Positions 19,140 through 48,500 of a DNA stretch of 64,000 nt are shown piece by piece. Within the stretch, counting starts at the first letter, position 1; every line of letters starts with the position of its first letter. The notes under the pieces were generated by a model. That model did no database searches. It was not told where the DNA came from and saw nothing but the letters and a program-made list of their open reading frames with translations. The DNA comes from Botryllus schlosseri (lineage: Eukaryota), in contig CM119371.1 in the NCBI GenBank assembly GCA_051294905.1, forward strand, positions 8,372,001 to 8,436,000. The letters are read 5' to 3'. The position numbers and the translations under genes are program-made.

Positions 19140-20279
19140 TAGGGAAGGTGTGAACCTCTCAAAGGTGAACGCGAACGTGAACCTCATGACGTCACGTGAC
19201 GTTATATTGGTTTTTCAAACCCTACATTTCAGTGTGATATATATATATATATATATATATTAATGTGCGCGATACCTAGGAAAGGACGTAGTTTATTTTT
19301 GTCCTTGATGTTTTTGCAGCATATACACCGACTCATGTTAGACATACAAACGATCTGTGCATATGCATACCATGAGTACATGATGTGAATATGCCGCTGG
19401 ACAAGGAAGGTGCAGATATAGCCTTGTATGTATGGCTTTCTAAGTCATGCACCACCCCTCCATGCTATCCCAGTAATTCATGAGCGCCAAGCAGGGAAGT
19501 CATGGATACCAGTGTTACTAGGTCTTTGTTCTGACCCGACCGGGGACGACTGTAGCCATATAATGCCACAATGCTGAATTAAATAACATAATGACTTTTT
19601 AAGCGTCTCCAAATATGTATCAACTATATATCTTCCGTTGCTTTGCCAACAATTTCGACGAGGACTTGCAAGGCAATACAAGCTTACGCCTGAACGGTCT
19701 AGTCCAGTCCGGACAGTGTATTCATCGTCTGAGTGTTGCTACGATGACATTGAGCAGAAAGTAATATGGGTTTTACCCTATTACCAAGTTATACAGAAGT
19801 AGCCAACACCCCAAATGGCACGGATTTGATTTTTATGTTACAATGAACAGATGAAATCGAGATGGACCCCGTTCGCTTGGTAGATTTTTGACATCAGACA
19901 ACGATATCAATTTCATTGATTGGTTGAATAAGCATCATCCGCTGACCACCTACACGTAGCGTATTTCGCTCTTGGTGTTGTGTAATTGCGGGTCAAGCTC
20001 ACAGTAGAGAGTCACTAAATATTCACAAACAGAAAGCAGGATATTTAGAGCAATCTTTTGTAACAAAGCAGGTAAAATTTTCGAGATTTTCATTGTGGAT
20101 GCTCGCTTAGTGTTGATTTTTTATGCTGCCATTGCCATGTACAGAGAGGCCCGCAGCAATAAATATCAAAATGTTCACAGTGCAGAACCTACCAAGATTC
20201 CTTTGTAAACGTGAACCTCTAGATTTCCGAGGTTAACACACAGAACGCGAACCTGAACCTTTTGTTCAGACCATCCCAA
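19140..20279. mobile_element. hAT MITE (TAGGGA.GGTGTGAAC family) inserted in an older MITE
   Basis: TIR TAGGGAAGGTGTGAAC / GTTCAGACCATCCCAA. TSD ATTCGTAA / ATTCGTAG. The flanks (18830-19139 and 20288-20322) join into a sequence seen uninterrupted at 51590-51900. Confidence 0.85.
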
Positions 20280-23224
20280 ATTCGTAGTACGTCTGTTGGT
20301 AGTGAGTGGGAAATGAGCAACACATGCAAATTGGATTTAAAATTTGACTTCCGTATATTTTGCACGCTGTGCGCGATTCAATGCGACTTCATTTTCTCAA
20401 TTTTAATATAGCAGCGCCGTTTGCGACCTGAGTCCCACAGCACAGATGCGAACAGTAAAGGAAAATCATGCGCCTTATATAGATATATCAATGTCGAATC
20501 GTGTGATCCTTACGAAAGAAATTTGTTTCTGGTACGTTTGGTTGATTCCTATATCTTTTCTCTATATCGTCAATACGCTTGGAGGGTCAAGAAATAACAG
20601 CATAGAACAAAGTCGCTAATAGCAATTGGCCCAGTCGAAGATTAAAAATGATTTAGAACTTGCTTCAATTTTTTGGAAATACCCACTCCATCAACTCTAT
20701 AACCGGTGAATCTGATCACATGGGCTGTGAAGCGCTAAATATTTGACAGTAACAGGCTATTTGAAACTACGAATATTAATGAGCGAATATGAACAAATTT
20801 TCTCGCTTCGCTGGCTTATATCCAATCCCTGTAACTATTGATAACAGGACCACTCGCAATTTCGGTGCAAAATGTCGCCTTGAATTGCAAAATGGTTGGC
20901 CAACCCAGATCTAACCTTAAAACAAAAGCATGAATGGGTATGTTTTGTTGTTTTTGGTATTCATCGTGTTTTCCCACTATACTCGTTTATACCAGAATGA
21001 AATTATTTTATTATGATCCCGTAGCTGCCGATTTGCAGCAGGTCCACTTCTAAGCCTCTAACGACACTGTTCATGCGTATCAGGTGGCGAGGAGGGGCAT
21101 AGAATCCAGATAAGCCTCCAAAACTTGACAAGGGATTCTAGACCCCCCCTCGGTCGGACTCGATCGAAGCCGAAACCTATTAATGTCGCAACTGGGGTTC
21201 AGATCACTATACTAACCCACCACTCTGGATTTCTCGGTACCATTTTGGCATTATTTGACAGACCGGGGTCGCAAGCATTTCACATAATCGTATCCGGCTG
21301 TCCAGCACTAGACCCTAATTTATTTGAGACCGCTGCTCTATTTCTCTGCATTGGATACCTTACATCCCCAATATACAAAATACAATAGAGAGAAAAACTG
21401 TTATCTCACTTAAAACATTTCATCGCATGCCAGCGGAAATGGCAGAGGTTTTTTCGGCGTCATCAGTATAACCGTGGAATTTTCGCCTTCCTGCCAACAA
21501 ATCAACCTGCTCCATCAACATCGAAGTCCATACTCGATAGGAAAATGGCGTTCATCAAATATGTGGTTTCACGATTTTACGATTTCGGCAAATCCAATGA
21601 AGGTGCGTTTCATTAAGTATTTCCCGGTGAATATCTTGTGCTATAGTACATTCACGTGACTTTTAGCAATAGAGAAATATAACGAATGAACAACTCAGTT
21701 GCGTTTGAGATCGTTATTATTTACCAATGAATCAACAAACGCACTGGAGTGCGATAAACATTGCTTATCCATCCCTAATAGTAGTTTGCATTACGTCTGG
21801 TACGGTTTCACACGCTCCGAACAATAGCAAAACACTATGTTCGCGACCTCTCCGCAGTCGCGGCCTGTTCTGTCTATATTTCTCGAACAGGGGATGTCTC
21901 ATTATATTGTTGGACAGGCGAAGGCTTATCTATATTTTTTATAACTGGCATTTAAACAATTTGCCCGTCAGAGATTCCCAACATATGACGACAGTAACTA
22001 GCGGGTTTTACCAGCAACATCGCAGCCGGTAATCGGTCGCAGCGGGTGCAATGTTATAAGTAGTTAGATCGAAGGTTATAAGTAAAAAGGCGTCACCATG
22101 GTGATCAGCGAAACAATTGATTCTCTCTCTAGCTGGCTGACAATATTTCTCTCATTAACTTTGGTATGAGCATGGGTTATCAAAACCAGTTACTCAAGGC
22201 TATACCCAATTCATATTGAAAGTGCAAAGGGGTAAGGGCTGACTATAGTGCTTACAAACTATTTAAGACAGGTCATGTCAACCAAAGATAATTTATATAG
22301 AACTTAGAACGTAAGCGGCGTGATTTGACAGCGAGACACGAGATTATAAGCTAGTTATCATCTGTACACCCGAAATTTTTAACGGTGGCTTTACAGTTTC
22401 GATCAATTTTTTAAGTATGAGCCGCGGGGGTATGAGGGTATAGTTTTGTGTCGTGACGGCCCGAGGGTGATTTTTTAATACGTATGTAATATTTGTTGAA
22501 TTTCATGCACCGCAAAAATTTATTCGCAAGTAGCGCGATTGCCTGCGGGCAGTTCGCACATATCCGGAATCACTGCGTTGGCTACTATATAGCTAATAAA
22601 CGAGACACATGGTAAAGCCCTTGCTACAATATGGTTTGATCATGAAATATGTAATCCTTTGTATTACACCTCGGAAAACCCCGTTAGAGACCGTTGGGAT
22701 CCTTAAGTGTGGGGTGTGAAACGGGCGGATGTGAGAATATGATAGACCGTTATTTCGAGGCCAACCACTACCACGCCGGGACACATGAAAACATGTAGGT
22801 TTGACCATGGACATGGACAAATCGCTGTGTCAGAAAGATCGGTGGTGATGAAACCTCGGCCGGCCAAAATTCCATAATTGGCTGTCGTTAGCTGGCCAAT
22901 TCCTACGATTGGTGATATGCCCTATCATCGAAATGGTCGGCATTGAGTATTCCCTTCTTTGTAATCTGAAACTACAGTAGTAACAGATGCAGTATAAGAC
23001 TGAACAGGAAAGTAATGCACCATAATTTGAAATCTCTTGTGTCAGAGATGTTTCGTAAAGCTGCGTTGAGCACAACTGTTTACTGCGCGTTATCTAAGCC
23101 ATACATGCCTGTAAAAACGTATCAAAATTAACATGTATTCTTTTTGGTGTTTAAGGCTTGCGTCGCGATATGCCATTTAACATCGCATCGTGGTCTAAAA
23201 AGTATGAGAACCAATGGTTTAAAC

Positions 23225-27696: not shown

Positions 27697-28273
27697 ATGG
27701 AGTCGTTACAAAACTGCATCGACGTGTGGCTTGGAGCGTCAAATGATATCGAGTTAGTTGACCGAAAGCAACAATCAAAAGAAAGATGTGAGGTGAATCA
27801 AGAAGCTAGATTTTCTTCTGAAACTAGTCCAATAGGGTCACCTAATCGCGATATGCATGAAGAGGATTACATCATGAATATCTGTAATAACCGGATAATA
27901 TTTTCCACTCCGCCGCCACCTTCGCTAAGCACGGATGACGAAGAGTCGAGCGACGTCAGTTCCGATCACTCCAACTGCTCAGTCGTTCGTCAAGATCAGT
28001 CAGAAGTGATTGATTCCGAAAATCAAGACACAACGATGGAAATCGATGCAGAACTCCACAACGGATTGCCGACAGATTTCTGCCAGGGACAGTCGGCGAG
28101 CGGATGGCAGACCGGCCCATGGATTGTTGGAGGACCTGAATATCAGATTGTTCACGGCAACATTCCTGTCATCAATGTTGGGGAATTGTCTGATTTATGG
28201 TGGATTGGTCATAACTTTCCTTTGGGCACGCTGACGGAACCGTCCGGTAATGTCGAAAGTCCAACATTACAAG
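27697..28273 (+). CDS. Divergent forkhead gene, coding exon 1 (acidic, Ser-rich N-terminus)
   Basis: ATG-initiated open frame of 192 codons. Phase-1 donor CAAG|GTATTT, which is CAAG|GTAAAT in the paralogous copy at 45473. The link to the forkhead exons is inferred from phase compatibility. Confidence 0.65.
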
Positions 28274-28778
28274 GTATTTTCATGGTTGGGAATATTTATT
28301 ATTGATAACTATGATTTCTTTCATCTGTTTCTTGATGAGCATAAGAAACCGGTGATAACATCAACTGAAAATTATGGTAAATATATTAAATATTTTCATC
28401 ATGTGAACGAAGTTGTTATGTGGATAATATAGAGACATGCGGCGGTTACTACGTCAATAGGATCGAATACGATTGCGATTACTTCTGAATAGCGCGATTA
28501 CGACTACAGGAAGATTCCGAAGTAGTCCATTACGGATACGACGTAATAATGACCGGTAGATCCGGTATTTTACCTTTGTATGACGCAGGACTCCTTTTAT
28601 GCAATGTTGATCCGTTCATGTCTTAATCCTCGTAATCATTGTTATGCACGTAATCTTCATATTCGATTACGATTGAGAATCACGATTACCCCACCTCTGA
28701 TAGCATAAGAAGATAGATAATGACTTGATCGGCAGTATTTTTCTAATGCGCCTATGTAATACTACTTTCCTTTTACAG

Positions 28779-28985
28779 GAGGCAATGGAATACTTAGCTG
28801 CGACGAACAGCTACATGCTAATGCCGTGGTTCTTGAAAGTGAAGCCAACGGCTACTTCCATCAACATCAACTGGCCAGTTTGTCCCATCCATTGACTGAA
28901 ATGCCGCATTCGACGAATGTCCCTGCTATACCAAATATGTTCGCCGTTTCATTCAATTCCAACGAGAATAATATATGTGGCCAGG
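28779..28985 (+). CDS. Divergent forkhead gene, coding exon 2
   Basis: Branch-like TTCTAAT, acceptor CTTTCCTTTTACAG|, 207 nt open in phase 1 to 1 (GNGILSCDEQLHANAVVLESEANG...ICGQ), strong donor CAGG|GTAAG. Confidence 0.75.
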
Positions 28986-29159
28986 GTAAGAAGGTTTTGT
29001 ACTTTTCCTAACATATGATACGGAAATCAAGTCATAAATTTCTACTCAATGATAACTGGAAGTATCGATTTCCGTGACATGTCAAAACGATAACTTCAAA
29101 TTATGGAAGTTGCGAAAACCTGAAAGGTTCTGTTTGGTGTGAAAAAGCGAACTTTTTTG

Positions 29160-31461
29160 AAAGGTTTTGTGTGAACGCGAACGTGAACACGAACCAGACG
29201 CGTCACACTGCTTATTCCAACACTATATTTTCGTAAAGTAGGCAAATACATCAATGTAGTACACGAAACACAGGCCTATAGCGACGACTCGGGCAGCATT
29301 AAGTAGGCATTCTAATAACTTATAAGTATATGCTGACGTTCTCACTAGCACCAAATGTATCAACAATCTATAGATTTAGTAATTAAATTAAATCAAGATC
29401 TTCGGTCGCTTTACCAATAATTTCGATGAGGAATTTCCAGGGAATAGAAAGCTTACGGTTTAACGGTTTAGGAGTCAGAATATTGCTACATTGCTTTTGA
29501 TCAGAGTGAAATCTCTATACTTGCCCCAGATATCACCTCAAAATTAAGTTATGCAGTAGCCAACAACCCAACCGCACGGATTTAGTTCTTATGATACAAT
29601 AAACATATCAAATCATTACACTGGTCAACAAAATAACTTTTTTTTTAGGCAGAACATCTGAGAGTCGTTACTGGGGTTTTTGAGATTGCTGATTACGAAT
29701 ATCACATTAGTTTTGTCAGATTGGCTCTTTGTCAGAAGATATTTATACCCCTAAAAAAGCCCAAAATTACCGAATTAACCCTTGAATATTTTTCTTGGTA
29801 GGAAGAAAAACGTATTGTTTTCTAATTTTATAATGCGCATAAATAGCTAATTGACTATGAAGAACCCTCATGTCATTCCCAGTCATTCCTTCAATATTAA
29901 CATGACATGATGTGAAATATTTGTTATCAAAAAACAGTTTGTCAGGCCTAAAAATTGTACTATTGCAGAACGGAAAAACATATTCTCCTGTATCCATTGG
30001 TCATTCTACCAAGATTAAAGAGGAGTATAAAACTATAAAATTTGTCCTTGAAAGGCCTGACTACAATACTCATATGCAACTCACTTCTTTTGACTGGTAA
30101 ATGGATAATTTTCCGCTGAGTCAGCAAATTGTGTATACCTAGTAACCCTATCAAACGAGAAGCTAAAATCTGGTATCTGGTATATTCGAATACCGATGGA
30201 AGATCCCAATTTCACAATAGGAAGGAGTTCACTGCATGTAATTTTCCCTAAGATGTAGTAAATAAAACTTTTTATATGATCACAAAGCACCCAACTACAA
30301 ACAGTAAGTCCGAAAATTCGTATCTGCATATAGAAAACTTGAGCACAAACATGAGCATAAAAGTTCACTTCCTGTTCAGTCATCTCTACATATTTACTGA
30401 TCATCTTGTTTATTAGCAAGGGGAGAGGTTCTACCAAGACATCAGAACACAAAAGAAAGATATCAGCGCAGATGAGATGAACAATTGAACATATTATGCC
30501 AGACAATTGCCGGAACTTTTCCAGGAACTGCACTAAATAGCTTACAGGCGACAATCAAACAAAAAACAATTGTGATTTAGAATATATCAATAATATTATG
30601 TTCCAACTTATTATTTCAAATTTACAATAACTGGTTGACGTGAAATCGATTGAATTAATGCCACGTTATTTGACTATCTAAGTAAATAGTTATATACATG
30701 ACTGGAGTTCATTTATGTACATGATATCCGTGAAAGTCAACTATGATAAATCAATTACCCCTAAATATAGTGCTGTTGCTGTATTCTGATTTAAAAGAGT
30801 CTTCCGTGTGTAAAAATAACAAGCAGATAGAATTTCTAAACTTTATAATACCACTGAGCCGATTTTATATCTAGTCATTGTCGCGAAAATGGGAGATTTT
30901 GGTCAAAATAGCCCCATGGTTTATATCCACAAGAAGAGCCAATTTGAAAAAAACAAGGTCATATTCGGAATCAGTGACCTTCAGAACCCCCAAAACCACT
31001 TCTACTTTGTCTGCCTAAAAATATGCGTTGACCTGTGTTATAGATCCCGTATAGGCCTACGCCTGCTCGACTTTTTATATTAGACCACGATGCATAATAT
31101 TAATTCCGTTGATGTCGACCGTAGATAAAACGGTCATTTCGTGCCAAACTCACAGGAGAGAGTCACTAATATCGTCAAAAACGGTAAGCTGAATATTTCG
31201 AGCAAACTTTTCTAACAAAACCTTTGACATGGGCAAGCTGCATGCTCGTTTAGTGCTTAATTCATGTTCGTGCTGTCGGCGCCATGCAGAGAGTAGTGCG
31301 AAGTTGAAATGCGCAGAATATCAGTTTAAAATGTTATAATGAGTTGGAAAATTGTCATAAATGGAAAAGGTTTACAGTGCAGAGCCTATCAAGGTTCTTT
31401 TGCGAGCGCGGACGTTCACACACATAACGCAAACGTGAACCTCACGTTCACACCATCCCCA
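29160..31461. mobile_element. Second copy of the 19140-20279 MITE family (intronic), split by a Chapaev3 insertion
   Basis: GTGAACGCGAACGTGAAC motifs at both ends and right end GTTCACACCATCCCCA. Internal homology to 19780-20200 on both sides of the insertion. Confidence 0.75.
29619..31037 (+). mobile_element. Chapaev3-type DNA transposon, internally deleted and decayed
   Basis: Termini CACTGGTCAAC / GTTGACCTGTG with 3-bp TSD TTA on both sides. Transposase relics LKIVLLQNGKTYSPVSIGHSTKIKEEY, LSNEKLKSGI, NMSIKVHFLFSHL and QGERFYQDI. Confidence 0.9.
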
Positions 31462-31966
31462 CATCAAATAGAACTTATGTCGATTTGGTCGACACCTTTA
31501 GCAGATAGTCATAGATAGTTTCTTTTCAAATTATAAGGTGCTTCATTGCGATAGAAGCGCAGTCACTAGGGAGCGTACAAAATCGGAAAATATATGAATT
31601 TACCTTGATGAAGTTGCTATTTTGCCCATTTGCTTTCACCATTCCAAAAATATAATCGATCAAAACATATCCACACTATCCACTAAAAAAATTACCAAGT
31701 AAAAAAGTAAATATGTTTGAAGAAAGCTGTGGAGCTGGTGTAGAGGTTATATAAAAACATGTCCACTTCAGTAGGTAGCAAGACTACGTAAAGCCTACTC
31801 TGATAGTGCAAAAAAGTGAAAGTATGTACTTCGTCACTGACCACTGGCTATTTATGAGTACATGCCAGACATATATATTAAATACAATCTATGCTACATT
31901 GTAAAGCCGTGTCACGATATCTTCTCTTATTAGTAATTTCGATAACAACAAATTATTTGGGTTCAG

Positions 31967-32296
31967 ACGCGGAGGAGGAAGTGCAGCAGGAGCTTAAACT
32001 CCCAAAAGCCGCAGACATCAATCCAGGCCATATCGCAGGAGTCGACGATGTATACTACGAAGTATACGAAGTATTGAATGCGTCAGAAAAAAGGAGGCTT
32101 GATCTCCCTGGGCATCCATCTGAAGCTAAACTTCGAGAATTGCAGATCAGGATCAACACTAAAGAAATGAGCTTCACTGACTGTCTGATAAAAGCGCGGT
32201 CACCGAAAAGGAGAAAGAGGCAAAAGCTGGGCTCTCATACTTCCTGAAAATCTGGAATCAACGTGTAATCAGAGGTGGTCACTGGTCAGGATCGAA
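31967..32296 (+). CDS. Divergent forkhead gene, coding exon 3 (putative degenerate first forkhead domain; 1-nt frameshift near 32206-32209)
   Basis: Phase-1 acceptor GTTCAG|. Reads ...VYEVLNASEKRRLDLPG...KEMSFTDCLIKARSPK and, after skipping one A, GERGKSWALILPENLESTCNQRWSLVRIE up to a phase-0 donor GAA|GTACAT. Confidence 0.6.
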
Positions 32297-32367
32297 GTAC
32301 ATCCATTGTTTTACAATAGTAGATAAATTCCAACTGCTTTCGCTGACTGGCCTGTTTGTCGTTTCAG

Positions 32368-32423
32368 GCTATTTCGATATCAACCAACTTCAAACCATTT
32401 TGCTTTCTAGATTTAGTCAAGAA
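32368..32423 (+). CDS. Divergent forkhead gene, coding exon 4 (56 nt)
   Basis: Preceded by a 71-nt intron with branch GCTGAC and TTTGTCGTTTCAG|. Reads AISISTNFKPFCFLDLVK. The phase-2 donor AA|GTAAAT matches the next exon. Confidence 0.6.
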
Positions 32424-33022
32424 GTAAATAGTTGTCAGTTAAATGTGCGTCACTTTTGGCGGTGCCCACCATTAAATTATTCACCAATCCTGTCCCTGTA
32501 TCACGGTTACAATAAATACAGGGAATTTTGACTATTTCATGTATTTCCGTCGCCAAAAGTCTTATTGAATTTGTAACAAAGATGCATTTTCGTAAGATTT
32601 TTTTTCGTGGGAATGAGCGGAATTAAAATATTCAACGTCCCGTCTGAACCTAATCATTAAATCCATTTACTTGAGCACTTCGACTTTTACGACCACTCCA
32701 AAGAATCCTTATATGTCTCACAATTACTTAGTTTACTTTTGATTGAGCAAAACGCTACGCCAATACTTGTATTATATGCATTCTACTCATGTAGTCAACA
32801 CGACTAGTTTTGAAAGCTATACGGGATAGTGGTTAAAGTAGCTACTGCGGATACCACACCGCTGCATGTAGATTGTTTAGTCTCTGAAATCTCAAATCCG
32901 ACACATATCGAAATCAATTAGTAAATCTTAAATAAGATTGATTATTTACCTCACTTTCCTTTCACTCGTACATGAATAGATTTAAACTGAAATGGGAATT
33001 CGAAATATGTTGCTTTTTGCAG

Positions 33023-33278
33023 CGATAATGGGGGCAAGCGCAGATACGGTACAAGGATCGCATACTCAATTGAAGACGGCATACTCAACATACTCCTCGG
33101 AGAAACAGCCGCCATGGCGGCATTCAATCCTTTTTTGAAGCCGCCTGTAACGTACGACATCCTCATATACCTCGCTTTCAAGATGGAGAACTCTGACAGC
33201 ATGGAAAATAGCGATATTTACCGCAATATCATGGAAATATTTCCGTATTACGGCGACTCGAAAAAAAAGACATTCAAG
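33023..33278 (+). CDS. Divergent forkhead gene, coding exon 5 (forkhead helices 1-2)
   Basis: Acceptor TTGCTTTTTGCAG|. KPPVTYDILIYLAFKMENSDSMENSDIYRNIMEIFPYYGDSKKKTFK aligns to the forkhead consensus KPPYSYIALI.MAI...LSEIY.FIM..FPYY....GWK. Donor AAG|GTAAAT. Confidence 0.88.
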
Positions 33279-33520
33279 GTAAATAAAATCAACCCATCTG
33301 TTTTAATGCTACTCATGCTAGGACATATAGTATCCTTTCATTGATTTTTATTGTTTGTGACTGTTCCATCTACGGCTACGCAATCGTTGTATAATAATAG
33401 ACTCCACACGAAAATAGTGATCACGATATACCTGGCATTTACTATGTGGAATATTGCGATCCCAGATCATCTGAATTGGTTTGTTCCCCGTTTAACAAGT
33501 TTGATTACTGTCTGTTTCAG

Positions 33521-33701
33521 AGCAGTGTACGTAATCGTTTGAGCGACGCAAGCAAAAAAGCTATGCCAAAAATCCTCTACCGCAAGATACGCTCAAGCTT
33601 ATGGGCTGTCTCAGACGAGGCGAAACTGAAGAAAGACTTGCTCGCTATTCTCCGTGACGACAAGAAACTACTTCAGATGCGAAATGCGATACGTCAAACA
33701 A
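33521..33701 (+). CDS. Divergent forkhead gene, coding exon 6 (recognition helix and wing)
   Basis: Acceptor CTGTTTCAG|, phase 0. SSVRNRLS corresponds to NSVRHNLS, followed by ...SSLWAVSDEAKLKKDL...MRNAIRQT. Donor A|GTATGA, phase 1. Confidence 0.85.
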
Positions 33702-34025
33702 GTATGACACATTTTCACGTTACCCAGTATAGACATGTGATATCCTTGTATGTGTGCTCAAGAGAATCATTGGTTTGTAGTAGGCCTTATACATATATTT
33801 TAGTGAAGTTTGTATACCGTAGTAAAGATATGCCTGAATGGATTTGTGATTATTGATGGATGCATCAAATGACTTTTGAATCTTTTGAAATCTTCGTAGG
33901 TCCCACGTCACCCAGACCATATCATGTCTTGTGATACGACGCTATGTTGAATGTATTCTGTTAATTATTGCTTGTGAGTCACCTGGATAAATTTGACATC
34001 GTTTTATGTACCATTCAAATTTCAG

Positions 34026-34099
34026 ATGCTGCCGTTCGTCGCATTTTCGAAGGCGACGACCAACTGCGATGTTTTGTCCCGACACTATTCGTGGACTGA
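34026..34099 (+). CDS. Divergent forkhead gene, terminal coding exon 7
   Basis: Acceptor AATTTCAG|, phase 1. Reads (N)AAVRRIFEGDDQLRCFVPTLFVD*. A diverged copy at 36828 conserves the acceptor and much of the peptide. Confidence 0.7.
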
Positions 34100-35442: not shown

Positions 35443-36827
35443 TTAGTATAACACGGATCGTAGGAGCTCTATTGTAGCAACACCTTTATTCGCAAGCAAT
35501 GGAAATGGCCAAGATACGATTATTTGCAGATTAAATACATTATAAACCGCTAAATATATGGTTCTAGCGGTAATACAAGTTGACGTATTTCTATATGCAC
35601 CCTTTGATTTAGTCGTGATGTGGCGTTAGACCAGCCCTGCGTATACGACTATGCGTGATGAGGAATACAAAAGATCTCGAGAGATATTTTCCATCGGAAG
35701 TTATATAGCAGTGCCTCCACGGATTCCCTGCGAACTGTTTTAATCTCCAGGTAACCTGCATATAATGGTTTCTCATTGGCGTTTTCACTTCTGTGAATAA
35801 CTACTTTTTGTCCGTTTTTTTTTTCTTCATAAAACTATGCAGCCAGAGTGCACTTTTTTGTCTCCTCGGAATTTAGTGTCAATGTAACCGATTTGTTTCT
35901 AATGGCGACTAGACTCACTAAAGTGAAACTGCAACCCTGCCGTCGTGTGGTATTAATATGGCACATTTTCGATATTTCCTGTTTTGATGCTTGTTTAATG
36001 GAATTATTTCGTACTAAATATCTCAACATTTGTTGGAAATGTGCTGGATAATACAAGCATTTCCAATCTACTCAGAATTGCTTCACGGGCTGGATGAAAT
36101 CGTCTTTCCGGCCGTATGTTCAAGTATAATAGATGACACCATAAGAAAGTACTAACACGATATAGCAGATCTGCTATTTCTGACTCAAATTGCTTCTCAT
36201 TAAAAATTTGAATCTACATAATGAAAGTTGCACATCTTCTTCGCGCCTCCTTACCTTTATTGGCGATATTGCATAGTAGCATCCGGCAACTCCTGAATGA
36301 AGGAAGGAAAATGGCGAAGAGCGAAAATACGCTACCGCAAGGTACACCGATCGAGTCCATGGTCTATTTCAAACGCGGCGGAATGAAAGATAGCCCTACT
36401 CATTTTCCTCAACGATCAGAAAATTGTACTTCAAATGCGAAAAGCGATCTGTAAAATTAGTATTCCTATTTGACTCATTCATTGTGGCCATTTCGTTTTG
36501 ATTTCTATAGAGAGTGGATGGATGGTTTGTAAGTAGTAACGATAACTGTACGAATCGGTTATTAATTTAATTGTATAATTGTTTAGTTGTAAATCAGGTC
36601 TCAATTTACATTTTTAATAGTTCATGGATGCATGGAATGGCAGTATTCTGCATTCTACGACGTTTTTAACGCTGCGGAGGTCTAACATCGATAAAACTAT
36701 CATATACTTGACAATACGGTGATATGTGTATTGTGCTTTGTCGGTACCTACATTCATACAACTCCTCTGTGGCTTTATGATATATTTGCGTGGAATTACG
36801 CGATGCTCAATGTTTCTCAAATTTCAG

Positions 36828-36900
36828 ATGCTGCCGTCCAGGATTCTCGGTGGGAACAACCAATATCTAAGTTTTGTTTCGGCGCTATTCGTGGATTGTC
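36828..36900 (+). pseudogene. Frameshifted duplicate of the forkhead gene terminal exon
   Basis: TCAAATTTCAG|ATGCTGCCGT is identical to 34015-34035. Peptide AAV-RILGGNNQYLSFVSALFVD versus AAVRRIFEGDDQLRCFVPTLFVD, with a 2-nt deletion. Confidence 0.75.
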
Positions 36901-40807: not shown

Positions 40808-41829
40808 GTCGACACTACCGCGTCGATAGAAATAATAAAAAACTTAATCTTTCGTTTTAGAGTCTCCTCTTCGACTTTTGTCTTTCGGGTGTTTCTTTGA
40901 TGGTCTGGGATTTGTACCCTTCCATCATGGGCGAAGAGAGTGGGTGTCTTAAAACTCAACAACCAGGGAATCACTGTCTTTTACGCTGAGCGGCAATATC
41001 CTCAAATCATTATATACACCTGAAGACTACGGTTGGGATTTGAGGATCGGCATTTCCCGGGATTGGCAAGGATGGAATATTATACACTTGATGCTACACA
41101 GGCACCATTTATTTATTGTAATATTGACGCAAAACTCAGTTTTGATACTAACATCTTCTACAGCCAGGCTGTATAGAGCACTGGTCCCCAACCTTTTTGT
41201 CTTCATTCCCCACTTCAGATTTATCCCGAGCCTTCATCCCCCACCAGGACCATAACAGCACTTTGTCAGCCCCGTGGGCGAAGCCCCCAGAACCCCCTCA
41301 GCCCCGCTGAGCCTGTACACTTTTTTTCCGCTACTTATCAGATACATTGGGTATACTGATTAGTGCGCCGCCTTATTGGGACCAAATGCGCGAAGCGCGA
41401 AAAATTTATATAGTTCGTGTTGTAATTGGTAAATATGATTGGGAATTGCATATATTTTGTTACCAATTTTTTATCCTCTATTTGCATACGCAATGAGATT
41501 TACCGGTACAGCTGAGTGAGGTGTCTTGGAAAAGGTAGGAACCCTAAATAAGAATTAAACATTTTCAGGCGCACCCGTTGGTATATTGGCTTCATTGCAT
41601 TATGCCATTTCGTGACCTCCTATACCTGCTATGTCAAAAGAGATGGAAATCGCCCAAACTAAAAGGCACACACGATTTCAAATTGGTATTGCTTTACTGG
41701 TAAATAATTTTTCCCTGCGGGATGGCATTTGCCCTGTTCGGTTCACATCGCCAGGACAGGAACATTTAGCGCCGGCCATTTAGCCGCCTATGGACAATTG
41801 AGCATATATGTATATTGTATATATATAGT

Positions 41830-43290
41830 CTCTTTTGCCGTTGACGCAGCGGAAAGTTATGTTACTTCTTTTCCCGGTACTATACCGGACCCTGCCTTAT
41901 CCGTGGCCAACTTTTCATTCTCGTCGGAAACCACTTCCATGGTAACCGTATCATCTCGGTCTTGGTCCCGGATTTCGAATAATTCAAGACGCTCTGTAAA
42001 TTCTTTCAAAAATTCTAAACATAAAGTAAAGTCCATCAAATTCTATCCCTCCTCTCATAGTAATAGCTTCGCTTCTTCTACTACCTCCTCTGGGTCGCAC
42101 GACTCGCCAACAGTCGTGACGTCACCGAATTCATCTGCGCCCCAAACCCCGCCCCCAATCCTTAGCCGACTCCCGGTCCGTAGGCCAGTCACTGGGTACT
42201 ACTACTTACCTGCCGCCCGTGCCTGGCTTCGGAGTGTCGGGGATAGTAGAGAGTCCCTAGGACGTCATACCATAACCCCCAAAATCGTGGTTTCCCCCAA
42301 GGGGTTTTACTCCCTCCCCACCCCAAACGTTAGTGAAGAGTCGTTTGGCCCCTATGTCTCTTCACAAAGCCCTATTCCTTCGCTTTCGGAATTGTTCAAA
42401 GTACCTCTGCCAGGCAGCCGGGGCTCTACTCAAGAGCTCCATGCCCGGTTGGAACGGGTAAGTCCCTTCCCCACCACACGCGATGATCTGAAACAGATGT
42501 CGTCGGCGGTAACTAGTCCGAACAACGTAGACTCGCCTCCCGTCGGTCAGAGAGCGTGTCTCCCTCGCGCCCACCTGTGGACGAGACTAGCTCTGTGACG
42601 GCTGAATCAGCGGGCGGCCATTCCGAAATTACCGGAGCTGTCGATCGCTGTGAAAGCCCGACGAGATTGCCTCCTGCGGTGAGTGCACGTGACGAATTGA
42701 ATGTCGACGTACCTTCTCCCGAACCGAGCCCACCTCGTGCACAAGTCGATCTGCGCGAGTTGCGCTCGGAGCTTGCGAACTTGGTGTCCGGATGTCCTCA
42801 CAACACCGAGGCTTTCGGGCACCTTGGAACGTGAGTTGGAGCTCTGCACTGACCGTGCCTCTAATTGCAGCCGCCCTCCCGGCCGTAAACGCCCCTCCCC
42901 CCCTAGGAACAGATTCTCGCGCGCGAAGCACAACGGCGTGCTAAAGTCAACCAATTGAATGGTCAGCGCGAGTATTGGTCTGGGGCGGCACAACACCTAC
43001 AGTCCGCTTTCTGGCGCAATCAGAAGGAAACGGTCAGACAGATAGATCACCGAGGATGATTCTGGCAGTAAACGGTGCGAAATTCCTGCTGACGTCATCG
43101 ACCGGAAATTTCGTGCTGACGCTGCCGCCGCGGTTTCTGATAATGACGCTGCTCTTCCTTGGTGGATGACTCAGCACAGTTGCCAGGTCGCCCTGCTGTT
43201 GACGACGAGGCGATCACTTCTGTAGAGGTAGCGAGAGTGCTGGCGACCTTAAACACAAGTAGTTCGCCAGGCTCCGATGGTCTCACCGTC
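41830..43290 (+). mobile_element. GC-rich relic, probably L1/Tx1-type LINE (ORF1-like Ser/Pro-rich part plus the start of the RT region)
   Basis: AITSVEVARVLATLNTSSSPGSDGLT (about 43210-43287) matches the non-LTR RT N-terminal motif IT..EV...L......SPG.DGLT. The upstream low-complexity ORF (41729-42598) is unassigned. Confidence 0.5.
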
Positions 43291-43535
43291 GCAGGGTTAC
43301 TGATGAACAGATTTGAAATCGGAATAAATTTTTGTGGTGCGATGTCTTAGTATCCCATCGAATGCTCTTGCATAGCTATCGGCACGCATGATTTTCCTAG
43401 CATGCTAGTTTTGAATAGTGGCAACGTGACCAGCATAATCCCGAAGTTGTCCTTTTGTTTACAGAAATTCGCCAAATCCTACTAATATCTACTCACGTAT
43501 ATTACAGCAAGTATTCAGAGACCAACTGAGAAGAT

Positions 43536-45473
43536 ATGGAGTCATCACAGAACTGCATCGACGTGTGGCTTGGAGCGTCAAACAATATCGCATTAGTTGA
43601 CCGAAAGCAACAATCGAAAGAAAGATATGAGGCAAATCAAGAAGCTATATTTTCTTCTGAAACTAGTCCAACGGAGTCACCTAATCGCGATATGCATGAT
43701 AAAGCTTACACCATGAATATCTATAACAGTGGTTCCCAACGTGGGCGATATCGCCCCCCGGGGGGCGATTTGTCGGTCCAGGGGGGCGAAAATAGCCAAG
43801 GGGGCGATAGGGGGGCGAAAACGGACGAAGGGGGCGATAGGGGGCGATGGCGCGTTGAAATGGCTATATTGGCGTCCATGACCGTAACTGCCACACCCAA
43901 ACCCCAATTGGGATGGGGGCCCGAGATCGAAGGAGGCCCACAATTCTTTCGTGAATTAACAATAATTAATGTGGAAATTTAGGCAACTTTTTCAAAAAAA
44001 TTCCGCGCTGCGCGCCTTTTCTTGGTCTCATATTTCTTACTTATTGGATACCCTTCCTCCAAGAAATAATATGCATGAGTTATATAAATGGGCATCTCGG
44101 CATCAGTCACACCATGTCGCACCAAGAGATATGTATAGTCTCAGGCCATGTAACATGCGACTCCGAGAAGTGGGCCAGAACGCGAAAACCTTAGGGAAAA
44201 GGCCTGCCTTTATGCTGACCGACTTCGATATATATACGATAGACATATATATTTAATTGTATATATGCGCCTAAATGGCTGGCGCCAAATGTTCCTGTCC
44301 TGGCAATCAGAACCCCACAAAATTATGCCATCTCGCAGAGAAAAATTAATTGCCTGTGCAGACATACCAATTTCAACTCGTGTGAATCTTTTAGTTTAGT
44401 ACGTATGGGCGATTTGAATATCTTTTGGCATAGCAGACAGGCCAGAAAATGTCATTACGTAACGAAGTCATTATACCCACGGGTTCGCCCGAATATGTTA
44501 AATTATTATTTACGGGCCCTACATTTTCCAAGACACCTAACTCAGCTTTACCGGTAAATCTGAATACATGAGCAGAGAGAGGATAAGAAATTGATAGAAA
44601 TATATATGCAATTCCCGATCATATTGACCGATTCAATCATACCGATGGAAATTTTTCGCGCTTCGCACGAATTAAGCCGACTAACTAATGAGTCCAACAA
44701 TTTGTGCTGAGAAGTAGCGGTGAAGAGGTATCGGGGGAGTTGGGTATGAGGGGTGCAGAAGTTTGCTTTATCGCCCTATGGAGGGGGGGGTCAAGACCAA
44801 CGTATTGGGGGCTGACGAAGTGCTGTTATGGTCCTTTTGGAATCAAGTCGGAGAAATCACCTTTTTTGTTACTCAGCTCACCAAAATTTAGCTGGGAAAG
44901 TGAAATTTCGCGGTCGAGCCGAAAAGTTGACCTTTTTTCTTAGTCAACTCGCCGGTGATTTCAGTCTGTATGCCCATTCTTCGGTTCCCCATATTTGGGG
45001 GGCGATGATCGGCGTGGAGTTTGAAAAGGGGGCGATGAGCCAAAAAAGGTTGGGAACCACTGATCTATAATAACCGGCGAATATTTTCCACTCCGCCGTT
45101 ACCTTCGCTAAGCACGGACAACGAAGAGTTAAGCGACTTCAGTTCCGATCACTCGACTTCAGTTCCGATCACTCCAACTGCTCAGTCGTTCGTCAAAATC
45201 AGTCAGAAGTAATTGATTCTGAAAACCAAGACACAGCGATGGAATGATGAGGATTTCACAACGGATTGCCGACAGATTTTAGCCAGGGACAGTCGGCGAG
45301 CGGATGGCAGAAAGGCCCAGGGATCATAGGAGGACCGGAATATCATATTGTACACAGCGTCATTCCTGTCTTCAATATTGGAAGTTCGTCTGATTTGGGG
45401 TGGATTGTTCATATCTTTCCTTTGACCACGCAGATGGAACCTACCGGGAATGTCGAAAGTCAAACGGTTCAAG
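43536..45473 (+). pseudogene. Disrupted paralogous copy of forkhead-gene exon 1
   Basis: 43291-45510 is co-linear with 27455-28310 (MESSQNCIDVWLGASNNIALVDRKQQSKER...). It is broken by a hAT insertion, a 20-bp tandem duplication and small deletions. The donor site is retained. Confidence 0.9.
43727..45062. mobile_element. hAT (Charlie-type) element inserted in the exon-1 paralog
   Basis: Perfect TIR CAGTGGTTCCCAAC / GTTGGGAACCACTG and perfect TSD ATCTATAA. The empty site ATCTGTAA is visible at about 27880. GGGGGCGAT subterminal repeats. Confidence 0.95.
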
Positions 45474-45559
45474 GTAAATTCATGGATGGCAATATTTATT
45501 ATTGAAAACTATTAGCTCGGGCTGGACCAAGAGGTTATATGTCGTGAATGGGATGTCAT

Positions 45560-48500
45560 GATTATGACATGACTCAATGAGAAAGGACCGTTGAAAATCA
45601 TATCCTGCACAATTCAGTACAAGATGGTCAACGGTTTCGGCGATATTGCAATGAAGCCATAGCGGAGTATCTGAACATCATATTTCGAACGAATGAGCGT
45701 TAAGCCTACAGTGTCCGGAGCGCAGACGGAACATGATGACGTAAAATTGCCGATATGCATGCATTGACGTGAATTTAGTTGAATTGCAACTACTGAAACT
45801 CTTATAATGCATCTCTTTATCTTCACATGCGTACAGTTCCTGCCAGAGAGTTCGCAAATATTGGCGGACAATTGACTTAGTTTCTCCGATGGTCACCTCA
45901 GGGAGTTGACGATTGGGGCCAGACAAAGATGCGGATGTTGCTTTGCGGTCGGCGATCTCGTTGCCATGGATACCTTGGTGACTGGGAATCCATTCAAATG
46001 CTACCTCTATACCCAGGGTTGCCATACCGTCCTCATTTTTAAGATTTGTCCTTATTTTAAAGGGCCACGTCTTAACATCTCAACTGTCCATATTTCTAGT
46101 AAATGTCCTTTAAATGTCCATTGTTACTGGAGTTCTTGCTCCATACGTTCAAAAATGATTTTGTCTATACTTGATGTACAGCCATTTTCGATCTTGGTTG
46201 ACGCCTCTAATCAGAACGAGGCGAATAAGTTTGGTTTATAACCCTATGGCCTATGGGGTGCCCCAGACCAACGTGTTTTTGGGGGAGGGGCTGGCGAAGT
46301 GCTGTTCGGCCCTGAGTGAAGGTAAACCTAGACCTGAGCTCTGAGCTGTCGTGAGATCAATGAAGCACTTTCTAATAATGAGGAGTTGCAAGAGCAGGCT
46401 GTTTCTTGCGAAAAGTATGGAATGTTATATGCCACGGATCGTACAAATACAAAGTATGTACAAAATCGCTTTTGATACTAATATAATTTTTCGACTTTCC
46501 TTATATGGGTCTTTGTCGATGGCAACCGTGTCCATACCTCTTTCAGTTACCCGCTCAAACAAGGGGAAAAATTTGCTGAATATATCTGTCGGCGCCGTGA
46601 GAGGGTTGGATATCGTATTGAGCACACTAAGCGAATCTGAAAGCATCACATATTTCTCTTCGTTGCATCCAGTATCTGACACCTAGGAAAATGCATGATG
46701 AATCGCTAAAAGTGCAACATGAAATACGGAATGGTAAAAGTTATACTTACCGATACCGAACGAGAGGGGATATAGAAAGCGTGAGCGGTTGCTATTGGGG
46801 TCTTGGACCCATCTTTATATATCTCGATAGCTCTGTTCGTGGCATTCAAACTCTGTTCGTGGCATTCAAACATATAGTCGTGGAAACATGCTTTCATAAC
46901 ATCTTGAGAAACATTCTTTGGGTGTAAACGTAGCAGTTGCGTATTGACGATTTGTGGGCGGGCCATCCACGGAAGTTGATAATGGAAAAGGGGTTGTCTC
47001 CACTGAAATTTTCCGAAACAACGGGACGTTGGAGTAAATGTTATACGTGACAACGTTAGGTCTAATTAGCCCATATATCTCGTCCCATGATGAATCTTGC
47101 AATAGCCCAAGCGCCGAATGTTAATCTGCATTTAGTTTGAGTAGGTAACAGCGATAATTCCATACACAGATATTTGTGTCTAATGTGAAGACGGGGTTCG
47201 TTGCATGTTGCTTGTAACGCACAAACAGGGGAGCTGCGCATTGCTCCACAACATTAACGCAATGCTTTGTTCTGCACTACTTCGATCTTTTTCGAATGGC
47301 ATTTTGGAGAGAAGTAGTATGCTGCCATACCGTAGTCAATGAGAGACCTGATCAGAGACCTGTGTAACTGTAATACTGACGATTTGTTACATCCCCAGTT
47401 CGTACCACGAAGTGCACGCAGCATACTGATCGACCGACTACACTTCTAAACAGCACAATCAATATGGAATTTGTACGAAAGATTGGTACTCAAACTTCTC
47501 AACCAAATTGATGTCGACTCCGTCAACGCACAATAATACCTCGGGGATAATCCTCTTTCGGGTATAATACCTCGGGGATAATCCTCTTTCGGGTAAAGAG
47601 CATGTCCACTGACTTGATTTTGAGAGAGAGCAACGCCACTTATTACATCACTCCTGGAACGATTTTAGACACATTTGAATGGATGCTGTAATGCGGGTAA
47701 TGGATAGACCACTCTCCCGCATTGCGCAATCATCGGCGTAGAGTAGACGCCTATACTTCCGTGTAAAATGGGGATGATATCGTTCACCATCACAGCAATT
47801 AGTGAAGGACTATATCGTTCACCATCACAGCAATTAGTGAAGGACTATAAGTACACTGCCCTGAGGTATGCCATTTCCTAGGGTCCCCACATCAGAGAAA
47901 GTATTTTCAATAAGAACTCGATAGGTTCTCTCACTGAGGAAACATTTAGGCCACCCCAACATATGACCTTTGATACCCAATTTCGATAGTTTAGACAACA
48001 ATCCGTGGCGCCACACCATATCATAGGCCCGTTCAATATCTAGAAACACGGCCAACGTTGAACGTTGATTGTTGATGGCCTTGTATACATCGTCACGGAG
48101 CGTAAGGCTATGATCCAACGTACTCCGACCTTCTGGGAACCCAGACTGTGACACATTCAAAAGTTTATTCGACTCAAGAAACCAACGCAGTCTCCTTGCA
48201 ACTATCACCTCTAGAATCTTGCAAATATGACTAGTCTGTGATATAGGTCGGTATGATTCTACCGCGGTGCTATTTTTGCCTGACTTAATAATTGGAACCA
48301 GTATAGAATGTTTCCAGCACTTTGGTAGCTGCCCCTTTGCAGTAGTTGACGAGTCGCTTGTTGGGAAAAGGTTTTTTAGCATCTGAAATTAACTTATCGA
48401 GTCATGGCCAGGAGTGGAGAGACCTAACGCGACTGAATAGCAGCTTTCAATTCGGGGACAGTGAAAGGCTTGTTTATGGACATTTCAGGGACAGTGAAAG

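Follow-up and report, generated by a model that had tools for sequence, protein, structure and literature searches.

We analysed 64,000 nucleotides of Botryllus schlosseri DNA (assembly GCA_051294905.1, contig CM119371.1, positions 8,372,001 to 8,436,000 of the forward strand), a stretch of eukaryotic DNA with ~40% G+C that we refer to as the window and in whose coordinates all positions are given. The subject is a spliced gene of seven exons at 27697-34099, which had been predicted from the sequence alone to encode a transcription factor with two forkhead (Fox) domains. Our analysis suggests that the product of this locus is, or was until recently, an orphan Fox transcription factor that is lineage-specific and has a single forkhead, a reading to which we give a probability of about 0.72. 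As judged by sequence comparison, the gene appears to be related to the ascidian protein Orphan Fox-1 and to lie inside a decaying tandem cluster.

A predicted seven-exon gene and its break in frame

All seven exon intervals have the expected borders: the first opens with an ATG at 27697 and the last closes with a TGA stop codon at 34097-34099, each of exons 2-7 is preceded by AG, and each of exons 1-6 is followed by GT (Table 1). The start ATG sits two codons 3' of an in-frame stop, and exon 1 lies inside a 203-codon stop-to-stop open reading frame (ORF) that is the second longest among the 21 window ORFs of at least 120 amino acids (aa). The exons sum to 1681 nucleotides (nt), one more than a multiple of three (mod 3 = 1). 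Exons 1, 2 and 3 share a frame until a TGA at 32236-32238, and the product as assembled has 354 aa. When one base is dropped anywhere in 32192-32235, the frame is open through the remainder of exon 3 and exon 4 into the forkhead frame of exon 5, giving 559 aa. The exons, boundaries, phases and length after removal of one base are thus all as the original prediction described them. Its further statements that the gene is spliced in a way that a plain list of ORFs would miss, and that the N-terminal region is acidic, were also borne out, exon 1 being both acidic and Ser-rich.

Upstream of exon 5 a stop is found at ~32988-32990, and conserved residues precede the sole Met in the exon 5 frame, so that exon 5 must be spliced to an upstream coding exon. 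Exons 1-4 would be the upstream coding exons that it requires. How exon 3 joins this chain is less certain. By a crude consensus score, the donor originally proposed for exon 3 (GAA/GTACAT) is the weakest of the six donors of the model. Exon 3 contains five other GT sites, after 31980, 32040, 32049, 32061 and 32070, that look like the GTAT-type donors found in exons 1 and 6; each of them yields an intact, frameshift-free ORF of 454-484 aa through exons 4-7. All five leave the forkhead-like string of exon 3 intronic. Exon 3 probably ends at one of these earlier sites (after 32049, 32061 or 32070), which would give an intact ORF of ~480 aa and leave the string in intron 3. Exon skipping was rejected as another way of restoring the frame: omission of exon 3, of exon 4, of exons 3-4 or of exons 2-4 gave premature stops every time. 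For a direct join of exon 3 to exon 5, only poor donors are available, after 32081 and 32198.

Table 1. Exons of the forkhead gene and decayed copies downstream of it, in window coordinates
Feature	Position	Strand	Description
Exon 1	27697..28273	+	ATG and 192-codon open frame; acidic, Ser-rich; donor AAG/GTATTT
Exon 2	28779..28985	+	207 nt, sharing the frame of exon 1; strong acceptor and strong donor AGG/GTAAGA
Exon 3 (bounds of the original prediction)	31967..32296	+	Frame of exon 2 kept only to TGA 32236-32238; 3' end uncertain
Forkhead-like string (proposed second domain)	32041..32296	+	Can be read only with a +1 frameshift; helix 2 lacks a counterpart
One-base shift zone	32192..32235	+	A-runs at 32206-32209, 32214-32216 and 32222-32225
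Exon 4	32368..32423	+	56 nt; open in the frame that leads to the forkhead frame of exon 5; no homology support
Exon 5	33023..33278	+	Basic pre-forkhead motif and forkhead helices 1-2; no start codon before the conserved part
Exon 6	33521..33701	+	Forkhead helix 3 (divergent), wing region and post-forkhead helix
Exon 7	34026..34099	+	C-terminal tail and TGA stop; tail alignable to the C-terminal end of Orphan Fox-1 proteins
Decayed exon 6-intron-exon 7 copy	36324..36898	+	Exon 6 part 36324-36463 with 69% nt identity; in-frame stop
Exon 7 part of the same copy	36817..36898	+	75% nt identity; frame change
Decayed copy of upstream region and exon 1	43287..45512	+	43287-43726 with 87% and 45063-45512 with 82% nt identity; stops and indels

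The forkhead domain of exons 5-7

The forkhead domain predicted in exons 5-6 is divergent but was confirmed by several profile comparisons. Of the seven exon peptides, only that of exon 5 has a Pfam match at E<=10: it covers positions 2-47 of the 88 in the Forkhead profile PF00250, with E = 3.1e-7 and 30.8 bits, above the curated cut-off of 27. Among PDB sequences, exon 5 found 20 at E<=1, including FoxA1, FoxA2, FoxA3, FoxG1 and FoxN1, with a FoxA1 chain (7vox) at E = 8.3e-5. No forkhead match was found in Pfam or in PDB sequences for exon 6 alone, for which hhalign gave a probability of 0.9%. Joined to exon 5, exon 6 is colinear with both the forkhead and the Orphan Fox-1 profiles, and hhalign gives exons 5-6 a forkhead probability of 98%. 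Further, an in-house forkhead hidden Markov model (HMM) built from 15 forkhead domains gives spliced exons 5-7 a score of 53 bits. Just 5' of the forkhead, an internal ATG of exon 5 lies in a Kozak-like context (33110-33116); this ATG is unlikely to be the main start codon, since the residues 5' of it are conserved in relatives.

Relatives among ascidian Fox proteins

Our HMMER search with exon 5 against 1.84 billion representatives revealed 8 proteins at E<=0.001. Two of these, the ENA protein P0003 (111 aa) and Styela clava LOC120342057 (995 aa), were found to be specific relatives, since their match extends over the ~30 residues that lead up to the forkhead. The residues that precede the Met of exon 5 align with P0003, P0010 and Styela clava LOC120342057, including a basic K/R-R/K-Y motif. 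With residues 700-880 of the Styela protein as the query, we retrieved Phallusia mammillata "Orphan Fox-1" (A0A6F9DD18, 589 aa), Ciona savignyi H2Z827 (580 aa) and a Ciona intestinalis "transcription factor protein" (588 aa). All four of these Orphan Fox-1 relatives (Phallusia, the two Ciona species and Styela) carry one Pfam forkhead stretch, near the C-terminus, and spliced exons 5-7 are colinear with all four from the basic pre-forkhead motif to the F-x-G-D/E tail. Against an HMM made from the four sequences, the spliced product scores 50.3 bits over profile positions 467-587. That the nearest proteins are ascidian would point, on the evidence of this one gene, to a tunicate origin.

The upstream part of the gene gave a different picture. 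The conserved N-terminal module of Orphan Fox-1 was not found among the 3435 six-frame ORFs of the window, in which only exon 5 (41.5 bits) and, weakly, exon 6 matched, and the product of exons 1-3 scored -2.4 bits against the Orphan Fox-1 HMM. Exon 1 and exon 2 each matched 0 Pfam families at E<=10, and for exon 1 there were no relatives among proteins of 337-2000 aa and no usable Atlas match; the first frame of exon 3 likewise found nothing usable in the Atlas. A search for proteins of 150-2000 aa homologous to exon 5 returned nothing, and a metagenome scan by alignment pattern matched 191 stretches, none of them a relative. The name "Orphan Fox-1" did not occur in the literature that was searched.

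The original prediction had derived the gene from FoxN1/4. FoxN1 (5ocn) matches exon 5 at E = 0.0018 and ranks 8 of 20 PDB sequences, behind FoxA1, FoxA2, FoxA3 and FoxG1, in a comparison where the query is half a domain; the nearest proteins are those of the Orphan Fox-1 type, and a FoxN1/4 origin is not supported. The Orphan Fox-1 proteins themselves score about equally against FoxG1, FoxK, FoxC, FoxA, FoxL2 and FoxN, with the first five above FoxN. The broader view of a lineage-specific, fast-evolving Fox gene was upheld.

The proposed second forkhead in exons 3-4

The short strings on which a second forkhead domain had been proposed are present in exons 3-4, but they do not share a frame: one frame contains the first two, a different one the last two. 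Neither of the exon 3 frames nor the read-through peptide matched any Pfam family at E<=10, and the first exon 3 frame found 2 PDB sequences at E<=10, neither of which was a forkhead. Scored with the in-house forkhead HMM, 21 distinct read-through variants reached -0.8 to 1.6 bits (E 0.02-0.13 in a search space of one), and the two exon 3 ORFs ranked 1294 and 1761 of the 2918 window ORFs that were scored. The exon 3-4 string reached an hhalign probability of 1.5% (E 0.033). Compared with a forkhead, it has extra residues within helix 3 and lacks an equivalent of helix 2. An AlphaFold2 single-sequence model of the first exon 3 frame (89 aa) showed three helices at a predicted local distance difference test (pLDDT) score of 59.8 and is too weak to exclude a winged helix; with this low-confidence model, a Foldseek search of the PDB returned 51 structures at E<=10, none of which was a forkhead (best E 2.0; 0 at E<=0.001). 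The Pfam, HHpred-type and Foldseek checks suggested for exons 3-4 thus returned no forkhead. On exons 5-7, Pfam (30.8 bits for exon 5) and hhalign (98% for exons 5-6) did return one.

We also asked how often such a likeness arises by chance. In a Smith-Waterman comparison with a canonical forkhead, the string scores 34, a value reached by 105 of 3000 shuffles (p ~0.035). Of 1322 window ORFs, 12 score at least as high, and these include the true exon 5 with 77 and the ORF of exon 6 with 34. When motif pairs were scanned for in a frame-agnostic way, 17 in the window reached the exon 3 score, counting the exon 3 pair, and 20 shuffled windows averaged 17.75. A p of ~0.03 emerges from three related tests, but both the region and the frameshift were chosen post hoc. 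The scan also returned a pair at 23031-23153 (N-L-L-C-Q-R-C-F-V-K-L, then M-Y-S-F-W-C-L) that outscores the exon 3 pair by far; isolated between stop codons, this forkhead-like motif was rejected as chance.

The claim of two forkhead domains is left unsupported by these results: there is no profile, profile-profile or fold evidence for the second one, a frameshift is needed to read it, and the frameshift-free models splice it out. The string would be a chance resemblance or a decayed relic with no working winged helix. That it derives from a forkhead at all seems doubtful to us, and that it is part of the protein very improbable.

Proteins with several forkheads have been predicted elsewhere. 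Pfam forkhead stretches number 2 in Teleopsis dalmanni XP_037951248, 3 in the ENA protein P0001 and 4 in Schistocerca nitens XP_049796147; all three are automatic predictions and may be either true proteins with several forkheads or tandem genes that were fused in prediction. A single forkhead, which Fox proteins were said nearly always to carry, is seen in the four Orphan Fox-1 relatives, each with one stretch, and has predicted exceptions with 2-4 stretches. A literature search for two forkhead domains found no paper; in a broader one for tandem, double or second forkheads, the matches listed, as judged by titles and the starts of abstracts, concerned two Fox factors, Fox binding sites or forkhead-associated (FHA) domains.

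Decayed copies and the neighbourhood of the gene

Partial dead copies lie downstream of the gene (Table 1), which suggests a decaying tandem cluster. The copy at 36324-36898, which we describe as an older decayed copy, has kept the length of the intron between exons 6 and 7 (353 vs 324 nt). The exon 1 copy is split by a 1.3-kb insertion at 43727-45062, which lies partly in a G+C-rich stretch (52% G+C, 42001-44000). It contains stops and 23 indel columns, and the main exon 1 is still open. Substitutions between exon 1 and this copy number 21, 25 and 30 at the three codon positions over 195, 193 and 194 sites, with no excess at the third. Given this even spread, together with a divergence equal to that of non-coding DNA, no purifying selection is detectable on exon 1.

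Two other features of this neighbourhood deserve mention. Directly 3' of the exon 1 duplicate, the minus strand carries the degraded remains of a retroelement (45681-48388) in which one ORF matches RNase H (E 3.4e-5) and another RVT_1 (E 2.1e-19); this element may be what truncated the duplicate. The longest window ORF (41708-42598, 296 codons) is Ser/Pro-rich, lies in a G+C-rich island and matched no Pfam family at E<=0.01.

RNA reads at the locus

Four RNA runs that carry the same species label were sampled at ~1.1-1.9 billion letters each (6-13% of each run). The reads placed on the locus are partial matches to intronic and flanking repeats only, and none of them lies over the frameshift zone. 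Intron 2 contains a repeat family (29398-29614 and 31133-31459) with an upstream copy at 19630-20277. All four runs match the intron 2 repeats and other intronic repeats partly, at 90-99% identity, and the family is therefore transcribed somewhere in the genome.

Weighing the explanations

Several observations weigh against a gene with a single forkhead that is still in use. The alternative donors of exon 3 score poorly, at -3.0 to -3.4 (after 32049, 32061 and 32070) and at -3.7 and -9.4 for the other two, compared with -2.0 for the donor of the original prediction, all on the crude scale. Exons 1-4 have no homologue in the search of proteins of 337-2000 aa, in the Orphan Fox-1 profile or in the Atlas, and exon 1 has diverged from its copy by 0.11-0.14, just as far as the non-coding DNA upstream (0.134). 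RNA depth is zero on all seven exons in all four runs sampled, in which no junction of the model was seen. Canonical forkheads keep the helix 3 residues W...N-x-x-R-H, of which Asn, Arg and His contact bases in FoxA3 bound to DNA; the helix 3 of our gene reads FKSSVRNRLS where the relatives have WQNAIRHQL, so that the Arg alone is kept and Trp, Asn and His are replaced. Finally, and in favour of a relic, the second of the 2 PDB matches of the read-through peptide (177,635 sequences, E<=10) is the FoxA3 forkhead 1vtn, at 12.4 bits and E 1.5. This alignment places S-F-x-D-C...A-R-S-P...G-K-S-W-A-L at the colinear position, across FoxA3 strands S2-S3, and spans the frameshift. No other single result speaks as much for the second domain as this 1vtn match.

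In a rival reading, the whole copy is a young pseudogene. The exon 3 frameshift would then be real, any mRNA would end its reading at the TGA at 32236-32238, and the forkhead exons would go untranslated. With the boundaries first proposed for exon 3 the ORF does stop after 354 aa, and such decay would fit the zero RNA reads on every exon in the four runs, an exon 1 that diverges from its copy as non-coding DNA does and without codon-position bias, a helix 3 that has lost its Trp, Asn and His in an exon 6 that Pfam and the PDB do not recognise on its own, and the two other decayed partial copies nearby. However, all seven exons are open in the frames that are needed, with AG and GT at their boundaries, and splice variants free of the frameshift exist. 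Exon 1 has kept 192 open codons that its copy has not, the C-terminal module is colinear with its relatives to within a few residues of the stop, and the RNA runs come from an unknown tissue or stage. We regard the pseudogene as possible, though on balance unlikely, and consider the odds that the gene is functional to be somewhat better than even. The model as first proposed, with an assembly or haplotype indel of one base in an A-run and a 559-aa protein that joins a degenerate N-terminal forkhead-like domain to the C-terminal forkhead, appears very improbable. A single deleted base does unite all seven exons in one frame, the shift zone holds three A-runs, and the FoxA3 match across the shift is colinear (rank 2 of the 177,635 sequences). 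The Smith-Waterman score of 34 also equals that of the genuine exon 6 ORF, an exon that is by itself just as invisible to profiles, and predicted multi-forkhead proteins exist elsewhere. But the string has no Pfam match at E<=10 even when read through, stays at 1.5% in hhalign and at or below 1.6 bits with the HMM, and has an empirical p of ~0.035 for a region and frameshift chosen post hoc. Its motif pair is one of 17 in the window where shuffling gives ~18, with the spurious 23031 pair scoring much higher; it lacks helix 2 and has extra residues in helix 3; its first-frame model has a pLDDT of 59.8, with 0 of 51 Foldseek matches a forkhead and a best E of 2.0; and the Orphan Fox-1 relatives, 4 of 4, have a single forkhead. 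We would be just as surprised to find a tandem-forkhead orphan Fox in which a degenerate module without helix 2 is in frame in the real allele (the assembled frameshift being an A-run indel), the gene having been born by fusion of neighbouring paralogues in the decaying array.

It would also seem hard to credit that two genes are present, one of them comprising exons 1-3 and ending at the TGA at 32236-32238, and the other comprising exons 5-7, with the Kozak-like ATG near 33113 as its start and the exon 5 acceptor as a possible site of trans-splicing. Spliced-leader trans-splicing is known in tunicates. The exon 1-3 ORF of 354 aa obtained with the first boundaries, the AATAAA and ATTAAA signals at 32471-32656 and the strong-context ATG before the forkhead all agree with such an arrangement. 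However, P0003, P0010 and Styela clava LOC120342057 share with the gene ~30 conserved residues that lie 5' of that ATG, and translation must therefore begin further upstream than 33113; the relatives, moreover, carry 440-750 residues before the forkhead. Rather, we favour a single gene with one forkhead. Its protein would bind DNA in the nucleus as a regulator and use its acidic region for activation, and its DNA specificity is probably changed or weakened because the recognition helix has lost Trp, Asn and His.

Comparison with known Fox proteins

If functional, this locus would be a further example of a Fox gene that is lineage-restricted, evolves fast and has an altered recognition helix, and it may be of modest interest for the origin and decay of orphan transcription factors in tandem clusters. 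It also offers a caution, in that a short colinear likeness of motifs beside a real domain (p ~0.03) was equalled by chance pairs in the same window. A double-forkhead architecture, even if true, would not be without precedent, given the public predictions with 2-4 clear forkheads. XP_037951248, P0001 and XP_049796147 are like the proposed architecture in having several forkheads per predicted polypeptide. However, all of their domains are clear forkheads in Pfam, at 72-103 bits each, unlike the exon 3-4 string with its 1.6 bits or less.

Ciona has the tunicate-specific Fox genes Foxtun1, Foxtun2 and Foxtun4, some of which are early zygotic (PMC12705688; bioRxiv 10.64898/2026.07.30.741679). 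The Foxtun genes and our locus are alike in being lineage-restricted Fox genes outside the standard classes. With FoxN1/4, the gene shares the forkhead domain and a post-forkhead motif of the R-N-x-I/M type; pairwise scores show no specific affinity to that class.

The closest comparison is with Orphan Fox-1. The gene differs from these proteins in an exon 5 identity of only ~37-41%, in that their conserved N-terminal module was not found in the window, and in a helix 3 without Trp, Asn and His that is followed by a shorter loop to the wing. Like Orphan Fox-1, it has a long, poorly conserved N-terminal region (in a protein of ~480-559 aa here vs 580-589 aa there) and a single forkhead near the C-terminus. 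A basic motif of the K-R-K-Y type stands ~25-40 residues before the forkhead in both, the core of helix 1 is L-I-Y-L-A-F-K, and the forkhead is followed by a helix (K-L-x-x-D-L...) and a tail that ends in F-x-G-D/E.

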